From a virus (taxonomy: Duplodnaviria; Heunggongvirae; Uroviricota; Caudoviricetes), in IMG/VR virus record IMGVR_UViG_2713896773_000007, positions 1-4,349 of that record: a DNA stretch of 4,349 nt; one strand, written 5' to 3'. Positions 56-4,090 of the stretch are shown here, piece after piece. Under the pieces are notes generated by a model. It was not told the DNA's origin. It did no database searches and was given only the letters and a program-made list of their open reading frames with translations. Position 1 is the stretch's first letter. Every line of letters begins with the position of its first letter. The translations under genes and the position numbers were made by a program.

Positions 56-313
56 ATGGAAATGACTGTAGGATTCCCTGAAATGGGTTCGCGATTTGAA
101 TCTGTAAGCTTCGATCCAGATTTAGAAATTAAAATGATAAAGACTGTCAGAACCAAAATTACAGTTTGCAAGCTTGAGCAAATCAATGCGCCTCATGAAC
201 TGGTGTTTATCTATCAGGAGGATTTCAATCCAGGCAGCTCTTTTGCCGAAGTCGAAGCACGCGCCAAAGAATATGCCAGTAAGGCAATTGCCGGATTGAA
301 AACCCCGGCTTAA
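56..313 (+). CDS. Hypothetical small protein, 85 aa, no recognisable family; cargo (moron-like)
   Basis: ORF with strong RBS AGGAGA at 45-50, 5 nt before ATG 56. Clearly more AT-rich than the tail genes (runs such as gatttagaaattaaaatgataaag). No hydrophobic segment long enough for a transmembrane helix. Overlapping minus-strand ORF 122-388 has no comparable RBS. Confidence 0.6.
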   Translation: MEMTVGFPEMGSRFESVSFDPDLEIKMIKTVRTKITVCKLEQINAPHELVFIYQEDFNPGSSFAEVEARAKEYASKAIAGLKTPA

Positions 314-326: not shown

Positions 327-557
327 TTATTTGATGCGATGGTAGATGTTATCAGCCCTGGCGTACAATTTGGATACCGCCTCGGCACGACCTTGCTCTT
401 GCATCGTCATTTTTGATGTATCTCCACCGTAGGCCTTCGTCATATACTCAGTAACGCGCTTGCGAAAAGCTCCAGCATCACCTGATTCGACAGTGGCAAC
501 AGCTAATAAAAACGCTAAGGCTTCATCCTGCTGGTCTTCTTTGTTAAAGCTCATCAT
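327..557 (-). CDS. Hypothetical small acidic protein, 76 aa (75 aa if the second ATG is used), unknown function
   Basis: Minus-strand ORF. Reverse complement of 552-564 reads GGAG-TTT-ATG-ATG; the second ATG (554-552) has ideal 6-nt spacing from GGAG. No + strand ORF covers this interval. Translation looks like a compact helical protein. No family recognised. Confidence 0.6.
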   Translation of the reverse strand: MMSFNKEDQQDEALAFLLAVATVESGDAGAFRKRVTEYMTKAYGGDTSKMTMQEQGRAEAVSKLYARADNIYHRIK

Positions 558-1841: not shown

Positions 1842-1842
1842 T

Positions 1843-1848
1843 TATAAT
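1843..1848 (+). promoter_or_regulatory. Candidate sigma70 -10 hexamer (perfect TATAAT) for the L-K cargo gene
   Basis: TATAAT at 1843-1848, directly after the L stop and about 93 nt upstream of ATG 1941. No good -35 (best 17-nt-spaced hexamer is taccac) and no TG extension, so strength is uncertain. Confidence 0.3.
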
Positions 1849-1863
1849 CTGTCAGCGCGGCTA

Positions 1864-1875
1864 GACTGGCCAGTC
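1864..1875. repeat. 12-bp perfect palindrome gactggccagtc in the cargo-gene leader, flanked by inverted repeat gcgcggc (1855-1861) / gccgcgc (1901-1907)
   Basis: Read directly from the sequence. Sits between the candidate -10 and the RBS of the 1941-2690 gene. Confidence 0.5.
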
Positions 1876-1940
1876 GAAGAGAGTGAACGTAGACACTCCT
1901 GCCGCGCACCATCATCTACGCAACCTGCTACGAGGTTTAT

Positions 1941-2690
1941 ATGTCACGCATTACTATTTTTCCGGGTGAAAAGTACGGCTATCTTACAATTATTAAAGAA
2001 ACCAAAGCCCCTAGCCATATAAAAACAAAAGGTCTCAGATACTTTTTGTGCTCTTGTGAATGTGGTGTTGTTAAGAGCATTTCCATGGGGTCACTCCGTA
2101 GTGGCGCTGTTGTTTCTTGCGGCTGTTATCATAAGAAAAAAATAACAAAACTGCATAATGGCAAGCCAATCACAGCTTATTCAGGATATTCGTCTTGGAC
2201 ATCTATGCTTGATCGCTGTCGAAATCCTGCTTGCAAGGACTTTCCCCACTATGGCGGGCGGGGTATAACAGTCTGCGATGAATGGAGCAACCCCGTGAAT
2301 TTTGCTCATGACATGGGTGAGAAGCCTAAAGGGTTCTCAATTGAACGCATAGATAACAATAAAGGCTATTCTCCAGACAATTGTCGATGGGCAAATGCTA
2401 CAGAGCAAGGTCGCAACAAGCGCAATAATCATAAAGTTGTCGTGAGCGGAGAGTCGGTAACTATGAGCGCAGCATGGCAAACAAATGGCATGAAAGAGTC
2501 AACTTTTTACAACAGACTAAACGCCGGTATGAATGCCGAAGATGCGTTAGCGAAACCTGTACGAAACCGAATCCCTTACGTAATTTTGAATGGCGAAAAA
2601 ATGCAACTTAAAGAGGCCGCGTTACGGACTGGCATTAGCAAATACATTCTCAGGAAAAAGGTTAGGCCCGACCTCTCCATAACCATCTAG
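1941..2690 (+). CDS. Cargo gene between L and K: Cys-rich HNH/AP2-like putative DNA-binding or homing-endonuclease-related protein, 249 aa
   Basis: RBS GAGG 1932-1935, 5 nt before ATG. Markedly AT-richer than flanking tail genes. N-terminal Cys cluster CSCECG...SCGC (C37, C39, C41, C60, C62). Central W-x3-M-x2-RC...YGGRGI-x-VCDEW and SIERIDNNKGYSPDNCRWA-x-ATEQ resemble a phage protein family usually annotated HNH endonuclease or AP2-domain (recalled, not searched); the canonical HNH His-His is replaced by E-R. C-terminus KEAALRTGISKYILRKK looks like a helix-turn-helix. Own terminator downstream. Confidence 0.75.
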   Translation: MSRITIFPGEKYGYLTIIKETKAPSHIKTKGLRYFLCSCECGVVKSISMGSLRSGAVVSCGCYHKKKITKLHNGKPITAYSGYSSWTSMLDRCRNPACKDFPHYGGRGITVCDEWSNPVNFAHDMGEKPKGFSIERIDNNKGYSPDNCRWANATEQGRNKRNNHKVVVSGESVTMSAAWQTNGMKESTFYNRLNAGMNAEDALAKPVRNRIPYVILNGEKMQLKEAALRTGISKYILRKKVRPDLSITI

Positions 2691-2696
2691 ATAACC

Positions 2697-2721
2697 AAAC
2701 CCGCTTCGGCGGGTTTTTTTA
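2697..2721 (+). terminator. Rho-independent terminator after the cargo gene, upstream of K
   Basis: Stem aaacccgc (2697-2704) / gcgggttt (2709-2716), loop ttcg (UUCG), T7 at 2714-2720, then A. K ATG follows 12 nt after the T-run. Confidence 0.65.
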
Positions 2722-2732
2722 CGGACGTACCA

Positions 2733-3464
2733 ATGAATAAAACCATAATGGCAGCTATCCGGGCGCATGCACTGGAGGAATCCCCGCGTGAGTGCTGTGG
2801 CTTCGTTATTCAGTCTGGCCGTCGCCAGCGCTACATTCCCGTGCCGAATACGCACGAAAATCCGACAGAACATTTTCGCATCGACGGCGAGCACTGGGCT
2901 AACGCCGAAGATATCGGGACGATTATTCGCGTCATCCACTCCCACCCGGGCGACGGTGCCCGGCCTATTCCGTCAGATCTGGACCGCCAGCAGTGCAACA
3001 ACTCCGGCTTGGTATGGGGTATTTACGCTCCGGACAGCGATGAATACGCCGAGATAATGCCGGAGGCGGTGCCGCTTATTGGGCGTCCGTTTATCCTGGG
3101 CTCGAATGACTGCTGGGGGCTGATTATGGACTGGCACGCCATTCAGGGCGTCACGCTGAACGATTTTCGCGTCGATTACCCGTGGTGGGAAAGCCAGTAC
3201 CCGGACAACCTCTATTTTGATAACTGGGAACGGGAAGGATTCGTCGAGTGCGATCCGGCACCAGGCTGCATGGTCATCATGCAGGTTGATTCGGATAAGT
3301 GGAACCATGCGGGCATCATCACTGAAGAAGGCGAACTGCTGCACCATCTTTACGGCCAGCCCTCGTGTGTCACGCCTTATGCCCGTGGCTATTTCAAAGA
3401 CCGCACGATGATCTGCGTTCGTCACAAATACCTGCCGCAGGAGATAAAGCCATGGCGCGTTTAA
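2733..3464 (+). CDS. K: Tail assembly protein K (lambda gpK-like; N-terminal JAMM/MPN domain plus C-terminal NlpC/P60 domain)
   Basis: 243-aa ORF. JAMM-like motif HSHPGDGARPIPSDLD (H69, H71, S81, D82) with upstream Glu residues. NlpC/P60-like Cys127 in GSNDCWGL and His192 in WNHAGII, with H204/H205 as possible third residue. This two-domain architecture is established for lambda gpK. 3-prime end overlaps I by 13 nt. Confidence 0.88.
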   Translation: MNKTIMAAIRAHALEESPRECCGFVIQSGRRQRYIPVPNTHENPTEHFRIDGEHWANAEDIGTIIRVIHSHPGDGARPIPSDLDRQQCNNSGLVWGIYAPDSDEYAEIMPEAVPLIGRPFILGSNDCWGLIMDWHAIQGVTLNDFRVDYPWWESQYPDNLYFDNWEREGFVECDPAPGCMVIMQVDSDKWNHAGIITEEGELLHHLYGQPSCVTPYARGYFKDRTMICVRHKYLPQEIKPWRV

Positions 3465-4045
3465 CCACCATTCGTCTGTATGGCGCACTGGGCGCCCGCT
3501 TCGGGCGTGTGCATAAACTGGCAGTGCAGACATCTGCCGAAGCGGTCAAAGCCCTGTGTATCAACTTCGACGGGCTGGAAGATTATCTGATGAATGCCAA
3601 AAAAAATGGCATGATCTTCGCGGTGTTTCGCGGAAAAAGGAATATCGGCACTCAGGACTTCCAGGAGCTGGCAGGAGACAGTGATATCCGCATTGCGCCG
3701 ATTATGGAAGGTTCGAAAAAAGCCGGAGTATTTCAGACCATCCTGGGCGCTGTGATGGTGGTGGCTGGTATCGCAATTTCTTACTTTAGCTCCGGTACTT
3801 TGGCTACGTTTGGCACAGGCCTTGCGATGTCGGGCGCGTCAATGATGGCAGGCGGCATTTACCAGATGCTATCACCTCAGCCCAAAGGGTTACAGGGGCG
3901 AGACGACCCTGACAATAAACCCTCTTATGCCTTTGGTGGCTCGGTGAATACCCTTGCGATGGGAAGCCCGGTCGCGCTTCTCTATGGCGTCCGTGAGATT
4001 GGCGGCGCCATCATCAGTGCAGGCATAGTCGCTGAAGACATCTGA
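3452..4045 (+). CDS. I: Tail assembly protein I (lambda gpI-like)
   Basis: In-frame ORF opens at 3365, but the real start is taken as ATG 3452 (MARLTTIRLYGALGARFGR...), which has RBS AGGAGA (3439-3444) 7 nt upstream and matches the lambda gpI N-terminus as I recall it (...ICLYGDLQRFGR...). Gly/Ala-rich hydrophobic stretch near the C-terminus, as in gpI. 197 aa. Confidence 0.82.
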   Translation: MARLTTIRLYGALGARFGRVHKLAVQTSAEAVKALCINFDGLEDYLMNAKKNGMIFAVFRGKRNIGTQDFQELAGDSDIRIAPIMEGSKKAGVFQTILGAVMVVAGIAISYFSSGTLATFGTGLAMSGASMMAGGIYQMLSPQPKGLQGRDDPDNKPSYAFGGSVNTLAMGSPVALLYGVREIGGAIISAGIVAEDI

Positions 4046-4065
4046 AAACTCCTTTCTGAATATCA

Positions 4066-4090
4066 AGCACCCAATTGGGTGCTTTTTTTA
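4066..4090 (+). terminator. Hairpin/T7 terminator-like element between I and J
   Basis: Stem agcaccc (4066-4072) / gggtgct (4077-4083), loop aatt, T7 at 4083-4089, then A. Followed by tggatgtaatATG; almost identical in layout and sequence to the element upstream of M. Confidence 0.55.

Follow-up and report, generated by a model that had tools for sequence, protein, structure and literature searches.

A probable free-standing PacI-type homing endonuclease cassette with an int-alpA-class leader between tail genes L and K of a lambdoid phage

The stretch of DNA analysed here (the window, 4,349 nucleotides of the Caudoviricetes record IMGVR_UViG_2713896773_000007) carries a low-GC cassette between two lambdoid tail genes, and it is this cassette, encoding a protein of 249 amino acids (aa), that concerns us. 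Pfam and PHROG profiles identified the tail genes M (721-1071), L (1071-1841), K (2733-3464) and I (3452-4045) and the 5′ part of J (from 4101); the open reading frame (ORF) of the cassette occupies 1941-2690, on the plus strand like the other parts of the cassette and its edges described below. The closest sequenced phage is HK639, with 89% identity across the flanks, in which no more than a 12-nt spacer, CCGGACGTACCA, separates L from K. When the window was compared with HK639 and with empty-site Escherichia coli prophages, the inserted DNA was found to span 1842-2721 (880 bp), its right edge being marked by the native L-K spacer, CGGACGTACCA (2722-2732), which HK639 and the empty-site prophages have in common. 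The same tail module occurs in 12 of 5,426 complete E. coli genomes, two of them with the cassette and ten with an empty site, so that the comparison of L-K junctions among relatives reveals a presence/absence polymorphism. An earlier note on this DNA had read the region as a self-contained, AT-rich cassette inserted between L and K, and both parts of that reading hold: the site is bare in HK639 and in most of the matching genomes, and the ORF has a GC content of 0.435, lower than that of L (0.558) and K (0.561). A role of the ORF in tail assembly was rejected, since most relatives do without it and it resembles no tail protein.

A TATAAT box (1843-1848) begins two bases 3′ of the L stop codon and is kept directly after that codon in two homologous cassettes, L007 and L008. 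It is probably the -10 element of a cassette promoter, from which transcription would begin close to the first nucleotide of the RNA structure described below. The Shine-Dalgarno sequence GAGG (1932-1935) stands 5 nt 5′ of the ATG, and downstream of the ORF an intrinsic terminator is predicted at 2697-2720, where a stem (2697-2704/2709-2716) capped by UUCG, with seven consecutive T (2714-2720), folds at -13 kcal/mol (z = -2.1) and is likewise kept in L007 and L008. The -10 box, the good ribosome-binding site (RBS) and the UUCG-loop terminator had all been named in the earlier note, and all three are present, the -10 box at the position given there. The terminator was missing from the list produced by the terminator scan, possibly because the maximal stem consumes part of the T run.

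Between promoter and RBS lies an RNA of the int-alpA class (RF02996), a three-way junction at 1854-1921 that cmscan matched over all 71 model positions (1-71) with 39.4 bits, the gathering threshold being 35.8. The corresponding leader scored 41.6 bits in L008 and 40.8 and 44.6 bits in two copies at L016, a Kluyvera prophage, while some related leaders fell just under the cutoff (32.7-34.4). The junction is made of P1 (1855-1861/1901-1907), P2 (1864-1875) and P3 (1881-1885/1894-1898), the latter closed by the loop AACGUAGA (1886-1893), and shows the conserved junction bases of the class, CUAG, CGAA and CUG. Relative to L007 and L008, compensatory changes are found in P1 and P3, and the P3 loop is unchanged. 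Minimum-free-energy folding did not single out the leader (z = -0.83), and thermodynamics alone would not have sufficed to recognise it; the structured leader that had been proposed earlier is nevertheless real, as the full-length family match and the covariation attest. What had been missed is that it belongs to a catalogued RNA family and is a module shared with many nuclease genes. Part of the P3 loop (CGUAGA, 1888-1893) is complementary to two downstream sites, UCUACG at 1915-1920 (site 1), a candidate pseudoknot partner, and CUACG at 1928-1932 (site 2), which overlaps the Shine-Dalgarno sequence. Rfam lists int-alpA as a small RNA (sRNA) of unknown function, and the consensus structure line in the cmscan output is without a pseudoknot.

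The 249-aa protein matched no Pfam (E ≤ 1) or NCBIfam model. It did match PHROG 374 and PHROG 3377, both annotated as HNH endonuclease, at E = 3e-59 and 3e-52. A profile search at E ≤ 0.001 recovered a family of 219,893 representatives of 50%-identity clusters, many of which have 2-11 tandem matched stretches per protein, and by tblastn the family is carried by 1,189 phage records, from phages of Staphylococcus, Salmonella, Vibrio, Pseudomonas, Bacillus and others, often in several copies. Such a scattered and often multi-copy distribution is typical of homing endonuclease genes (HEGs).

Three parts can be recognised in the ORF: a Cys-cluster domain (residues ~1-70), a core (~75-165) discussed below, and two beta-hairpin/helix-turn-helix (HTH)-like modules (~165-245). 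In the structure model, each of the latter consists of a beta-hairpin plus helices (165-204 and 214-240), which would correspond to the modular plan of phage homing endonucleases. Among 121 aligned sequences the conserved positions are C37, C39, C41, C60, C62, W86, M89, R92 and C93 in the first part of the protein, Y104-G-G-R-G-I109, C112, W115 and F121 in the middle, and (D/E)135-R136-I-D138-N, Y143, P145, N147-C148-R149-W150, Q156 and N159 further on. The Cys clusters (C37-x-C39-x-C41 and C60-x-C62) and the ERID motif pointed out in the earlier note are therefore not peculiar to this copy. Eight Cys residues are conserved (37, 39, 41, 60, 62, 93, 112 and 148) and might make up two zinc sites. 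R136, which stands where a catalytic His might be expected, is invariant in 121 of 121 sequences, so the "missing His" is a property of the family and not a lesion of this copy.

The catalytic core of the family lies outside every Pfam and NCBIfam model, and a Pfam census of 120 relatives found HNH_3, HNH and AP2 in none of them. An identity of the ORF with AP2 (PF00847) or HNH_3 (PF13392), as first suggested, is thus rejected; AP2 was seen solely in nucleases unrelated to the ORF that stand behind the same leader. The C-terminal part of the relatives matched Sigma70_r4, HTH_psq, I-TevI_DNA-bd and NUMOD1 only; these agree with the HTH-like tail that had been proposed, and the NUMOD-type match that had been anticipated was obtained in the relatives alone.

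The core is best compared with the restriction enzyme PacI (PDB 3ldy and 3m7k; His-Me finger group 20), a homodimer of 142-aa subunits. In PacI, a His-Me finger without the His, a Tyr in the loop serves as general base while an Asp and an Asn bind the metal (PMC4081073, PMC5714182). For the comparisons we used exact matches to 3ldy_A for PacI and 1u3e_M for I-HmuI. BLASTP aligned the ORF with PacI at E = 4e-4, and hhalign aligned the family with PacI at E = 0.002 and with a 10-member PacI-family profile, for which the search had found nine relatives, at E = 7e-4 over 90 columns with a probability of 27%; these are modest statistics. Foldseek of the protein model against the PDB returned no significant match, and against PDB sequences HMMER yielded nothing but noise, whether the query was the protein, its core segment or the profile of the family. 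In the alignment, VDRSDSFEGYSPQNARLA of PacI falls on LDRIDNNKGYSPDNCRWA of the family consensus, and the S-C-G-C knuckle of the family on C24-K-G-C27 of PacI. E135, R136, D138, Y143, N147, R149 and Q156 align with D92, R93, D95, Y100, N104, R106 and N113 of PacI, seven positions that are invariant or nearly so in the 121 homologues and in the PacI family and are all kept in the window ORF. The pairing of Q156 with N113 is set by the register of the alignment and is supported by that with I-HmuI, in which E135, R136 and Q156 fall on D74, H75 and N96. This last alignment also upholds the view that the central motif belongs to the HNH superfamily with an Arg in place of the catalytic His. The motif can be written D/E-R-x-D...G-Y-S-P-x-N-x-R-x-A...Q/N; the ORF core conforms to the beta-beta-alpha-metal fold and has the elements of a His-less active site, namely the loop Tyr, acidic and Asn/Gln metal ligands and a flanking Arg. 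We infer that the core is a PacI-type beta-beta-alpha-metal nuclease, with predicted activity. A His-less family at this scale appears to be new, no description of one having turned up in the literature searched.

The lack of a canonical catalytic His had led the earlier note to favour a non-catalytic or divergent DNA-binding protein. Dead and domesticated, it might for instance be a regulator that uses the nuclease fold as a scaffold. The invariance of R136, a subclade that has also lost His75 and the HTH modules in the C-terminal part of the relatives would suit such a protein, and inactive His-Me fingers do exist, as in Smad MH1 and Enpp (PMC5714182). However, the His-less motif follows that of an active enzyme, PacI, position by position at the metal ligands and at the Tyr, Arg and Asn, and because all PacI-type catalytic positions are retained, with Tyr for His, "non-catalytic" is not the best reading. 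The catalytic residues are moreover invariant across a huge family, as catalysis predicts, and a sporadic, site-specific distribution fits a mobile element and not a regulator. We regard a dead, domesticated protein as distinctly unlikely.

The DNA around the cassette shows how it has moved. Positions 1717-2815 of the window are 100% identical in the prophages of E. coli ABWA45 and VREC0761, and beyond this block identity falls to 72-95%, also within L 5′ of 1717. The block includes the last ~125 bp of L (1717-1841) and the 5′ end of K (2733-2815), where the first mismatch with both prophages is at 2816. The nearest empty-site prophage, in E. coli 21AR0133 (L004), presents the converse pattern: its M gene is 100% identical to that of the window, and from K to I there are 11 differences in 1,300 bp (97-100% identity on the K/I side, with the first mismatch in K at 2786), whereas the last ~125 bp of L differs at about 25% of positions, with ~35 mismatches in 1700-1825. 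Of the 31 differing codons in this end of L, 23 (about three quarters) differ synonymously. The L 3′ end of the window differs from all empty alleles compared, so that the cassette is accompanied by an L 3′ allele of its own. These data show a recent lateral transfer of the cassette into the same site. Homing with co-conversion of flanking DNA (PMC2330249, PMC2790892, PMC12724721) is expected to leave such an identical block with a distinct L allele, and the pattern is compatible with it without being exclusive to it; 1717-1841 is a candidate co-conversion tract or, alternatively, a protected target region.

In K, the first ~85 nt hardly vary, synonymous sites included, in the seven prophages compared, with or without the cassette, the rest of the gene being 80-98% identical. 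This near-invariant start (2733-2815) could be a recognition region of the nuclease or a translational-coupling signal. In the VREC0761 prophage, ISSen4, an insertion sequence of the IS3 family, lies between I and J (L003:5082-6202); this cassette-bearing prophage is probably defective.

Homologues with 78%, 70%, 58% and ~65% protein identity, from metagenomic contigs and a Kluyvera genome, are without exception placed between L and K. In L007 and L008 the leader, TATAAT box and terminator are those of the window. Other versions differ in their surroundings: in L009 the spacers are 46 and 12 nt long, with a TGGTATACT box, and in L010 they are 15 and 12 nt long and the protein has 184 aa, without the N-terminal Cys domain. 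The lineage is thus specific for the L-K site, where it is polymorphic for presence and absence. The ratio of nonsynonymous to synonymous substitution (dN/dS) between the window ORF and that of L007 is 0.18; in deeper pairs the synonymous sites are saturated and the proportion of nonsynonymous differences (pN) is 0.15-0.30. The ORF lineage has been kept under purifying selection, and no decayed copy was met among the relatives located. The 161-aa relatives P0005 and P0006 had seemed decayed, but P0005 was recognised as a gene-calling artefact, since L016 encodes an intact 249-aa gene. In the phage-record collection no close relative was found, the best match having 41% identity.

Two further observations concern variation at this site. 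The 184-aa version (L010:4001-4555 and L012:3548-4102) lacks the leader and terminator as well as the Cys-cluster domain and persists at L-K, so these parts are dispensable for persistence there. The window ORF and that of L007 (L007:4001-4750) are near-identical from about residue 124 to the end and diverged in the N-terminal half, and L016 joins a window-type leader to an L007-like N-terminus; together they show that recombination takes place inside the cassette.

It may be asked whether the cassette is simply a passenger, inserted once at L-K long ago, inherited vertically and moved by ordinary recombination, with a function unrelated to mobility. Lambdoid tail modules are highly mosaic, identity along this region ranging from 59% to 100%, and flanking homology alone would be sufficient for transfer. 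Yet in three backgrounds the stretch of 100% identity has the cassette precisely at its centre, independent versions with different spacers occupy the same site, and the cargo belongs to a nuclease family with a HEG-like distribution, which together make a passive passenger very improbable in our estimation.

Taking these lines together, we consider it probable that the cassette is a free-standing PacI-type HEG specific for the L-K site of lambdoid (HK97/HK639-like) tail operons and equipped with its own promoter, riboregulatory leader and terminator. The earlier note had left the choice between a moron and a free-standing HEG; the presence/absence polymorphism, the identical cassette within diverged flanks and the site-fixed lineage favour the second. 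A HEG cassette is a known kind of element, and the L-K site appears to be new, no description of it having turned up in the literature searched. In the proposed mechanism, alignment with PacI makes Glu135 and Gln156 the predicted metal ligands and Tyr143 the predicted general base, with Arg136, Asp138, Asn147 and Arg149 in supporting roles, while the Cys-cluster domain and the two HTH-like modules would supply sequence recognition. In a cell that holds both a cassette-bearing phage and a relative without the cassette, the empty allele would be cut by the enzyme near the L-K junction, and repair off the occupied allele would copy the cassette together with adjoining L sequence. Expression would be self-contained, from the -10 promoter through the int-alpA-class leader, which probably sets translation, to the intrinsic terminator.

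Several points weigh against this interpretation. The TATAAT box has neither a usable -35 element nor an upstream TG, and the promoter scan did not call it, for want of the -35. His75, present in 105 of 121 relatives, is Lys, Asn or Arg in the subclade of the window; since the position aligns beside the invariant G41-H42 of the PacI family, its loss may mean that activity is altered there. The second zinc site of PacI (C109/C112) is not conserved, the ORF having N152 and E155 instead. Ordinary recombination between mosaic phages, or through the flanks, could also account for the movement of the cassette, with no nuclease involved. Cleavage by the protein, its target site, use of the promoter, a regulatory effect of the RNA and the homing event itself are all predictions from sequence comparison. 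Finally, for the one "PacI-like" phage enzyme that has been tested, phage exclusion was not reported (PMC12724721).

Exclusion bears on another explanation, which overlaps with homing in that both could be true: a moron expressed from the prophage, whose nuclease or DNA-binding activity would serve defence, by superinfection exclusion or competition. Some homing endonucleases do exclude competing phages. The promoter-gene-terminator layout, the lower GC content and the position between conserved late genes are those of a moron, of whose usual signals the conserved -10 box and the terminator are present and the -35 element is absent; purifying selection across a deep lineage would also fit a protective gene. 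Against this, no PADLOC defence model matched the protein (0 families at E ≤ 0.01), the cassette is missing in most close relatives, unlike a strongly beneficial gene, and expression in the lysogen is only presumed. A defensive role in place of homing seems to us unlikely, and a HEG is the reading we retain in what follows.

As a HEG, the cassette resembles several known systems and differs from each. PacI itself belongs to a small family, of 88 members in the His-Me finger list (PMC5714182), whereas the cassette protein is longer, has added HTH-like modules, lacks the C109/C112 zinc ligands, has Gln for the metal-binding Asn113, belongs to a family of ~220,000 clusters, and behaves like a mobile element. 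The name "PacI-like" has been given to free-standing phage HNH genes in one earlier case, that of lactococcal Skunavirus, where it covers 2 of 268 genes (PMC12724721). As here, these are phage-encoded, PacI by profile, variably present and fixed at one site of the morphogenesis module (PMC12724721); the host and the site are different, however, no RNA leader has been described, and the likeness is one of description. I-HmuI and the HNH_3 family (PF13392) share with the cassette protein the superfamily and the combination of a nuclease core, which aligns with that of the ORF, with NUMOD/HTH-type modules, and HNH_3 genes of other phages stand behind the same int-alpA-type leader. The cassette protein differs from them in having no Pfam HNH_3 or AP2 match and an invariant Arg for the catalytic His.

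The T-even seg and mob HEGs are likewise intergenic between conserved genes, polymorphic for presence and absence and associated with co-conversion of flanking markers, and the expression of some T4 endonuclease genes is controlled by RNA structure around the RBS. They are, however, GIY-YIG or canonical HNH enzymes of lytic phages, whereas the cassette encodes a PacI-type protein in a temperate lambdoid tail operon and has a promoter, a three-way-junction leader and a terminator. Morons of the HK97/HK022 type share the promoter-gene-terminator plan, the deviant GC content and the place between conserved late genes; what sets the cassette apart from them is a cargo from a mobile-element nuclease family and site-specific spread.

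If our interpretation is correct, a testable homing system exists in the best-understood phage tail module, and a nuclease lineage tied to L-K would help to explain mosaic boundaries in lambdoid tail genes. The His-less PacI-type HNH fold would then be the core of a family of ~220,000 clusters and not the curiosity of one restriction enzyme. As no Pfam or NCBIfam model exists for this family, many phage genes are left as "hypothetical".

The leader was surveyed beyond this cassette. An earlier RNA pattern with 16 specified bases had given mostly chance matches, about 10 of the 120 loci listed being real. We then scanned viral contigs with two junction sequences, leaving the loop unconstrained, which yielded at least 120 loci per scan, a sample biased by its two seeds and by the fixed number of loci taken from each scan. 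A register-free parse of the matches listed gave 133 unique leaders in 66 loop classes. Two complementary sites of at least 5 nt for the P3 loop were present in the leader's own 55-nt tail in 77% of leaders, and at least one in 97%; when loops were paired with the tails of other leaders, the values were 1.9% and 18.6%. Two sites were found in 39 of the 66 loop classes, against a mean of 1.9 and a maximum of 8 in 1,000 permutations. The P3 loop and its downstream sites thus co-vary across the loop classes. The geometry is fixed: site 1 begins 7 nt past P1, a 7-nt gap follows, and then comes site 2, with its end at a median distance of 8 nt from the start codon and AGGT or GGTT next to it on the 3′ side. 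Pairing of the loop with site 1 is slightly stronger than with site 2 in 28 of 37 classes (-8.6 versus -8.0 kcal/mol).

The other parts of the module recur as well. Ahead of P1, mostly at a distance of 4-6 nt, 86 of the 133 leaders have a -10 hexamer that matches in five or six of its six positions (4 of 133 in the control), and 42 of those 86 have an upstream TG. Across 63 diverse copies, pairing in P1 amounts to 95.6%, six of its seven pairs have changed on both sides, and its covariation score of 0.445, compared with 0.154 in shuffles, was reached in none of 500 shuffles. The MAFFT alignment of these 63 leaders holds P1 in register and blurs P3 and the tails; pseudoknot pair counts taken from it are weak for that reason (42-56% paired), and the register-free permutation test was used instead.

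The ORF downstream is known for 131 unique leaders, and in 74 of them it is a nuclease-type gene, six or more unrelated families being represented: HNH_3 (in many cases with AP2) or the phrog_2340 endonuclease (37 leaders), T5orf172 (12), PacI-like (6), HNH_5 (6), Endonuclease_7 (4), and other single-member clusters comprising GIY-YIG with or without NUMOD3 or AP2, HNH and HNH_3 (9). Behind the remaining leaders stand, among others, genes for an HTH_36 protein, for DUF1376 and for a RecD-like helicase, and numerous small ORFs. The int-alpA class is accordingly a portable module of promoter plus 5′ untranslated region for accessory genes, with a strong bias towards genes that resemble those of homing endonucleases. 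The present leader shares with the Rfam family a full-length match above threshold, the junction bases and covarying stems; what the sRNA listing does not convey, and what is seen here and in more than 130 copies, is an ORF directly downstream, a preceding -10 box and a loop complementary to the Shine-Dalgarno region. Because it lies directly upstream of an ORF, behind a -10 box, with a loop complementary to two sites, the RNA points to a cis-acting leader and not to a trans-acting sRNA. This cis-regulatory reading appears to be new, no description having turned up in the literature searched.

We put forward more tentatively, as a possibility that we rate somewhat short of probable, that the class is a portable promoter-riboregulator that gates translation of selfish nucleases and other accessory genes in enterobacterial phages and their satellites by means of two mutually exclusive pseudoknots. 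The P3 loop would alternate between the decoy site 1, 7 nt past the junction, which would leave the RBS free, and site 2, which would block it; the alternation might set a low or conditional translation of a potentially toxic nuclease, and we assign neither its direction nor its trigger. Each copy of the leader would bear a private loop/site "address". If so, an orphan Rfam motif acquires a function-level hypothesis, the regulation of free-standing HEGs in temperate phages becomes testable, and the window cassette is one instance of how temperate phages hold toxic homing endonucleases at a safe dose or timing.

The loop/site rule is followed in other settings. The Kluyvera prophage L016 has a second int-alpA-led cassette between tail genes I and J (L016:4853-5737), whose 265-aa ORF has matches to phrog_2340 ("endonuclease") and to Endo VII families. 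Its leader has the loop CACAGA, and the two sites have changed in step, to UCUGUG and CUGUG-AGG. Canonical copies of int-alpA in P4-like islands (L013:2993-3058, L014:2996-3061 and L015:2996-3062) obey the same rule, with the pairs GCCUUA/UAAGGC and ACCUUA/UAAGGU. They stand just after the integrase and ~20 nt before ORFs of 293-317 aa that matched no Pfam or PHROG profile; these ORFs were considered as relatives of the window ORF and rejected, no similarity being found. L013 also has two C4 antisense RNAs and isrK.

Elsewhere in the window, a terminator-like hairpin with a T run lies between I and J (4065-4084), at the place of an annotated terminator in HK639. Three terminators are thus found within the late tail operon (686-703, 2697-2720 and 4065-4084), which implies antiterminated late transcription; in HK639 and HK97 terminators are also annotated inside the late operon. 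Upstream of M, two small ORFs, at 56-313 (plus strand) and 327-557 (minus strand), share 90% identity with the gp22/gp23 region of HK97, the terminator at 686-703 included. This block (33-725), flanked by terminator-like hairpins at 1-20 and 686-703, adjoins J in HK97, and looks like a second moron-type module that sits at different junctions in different phages.

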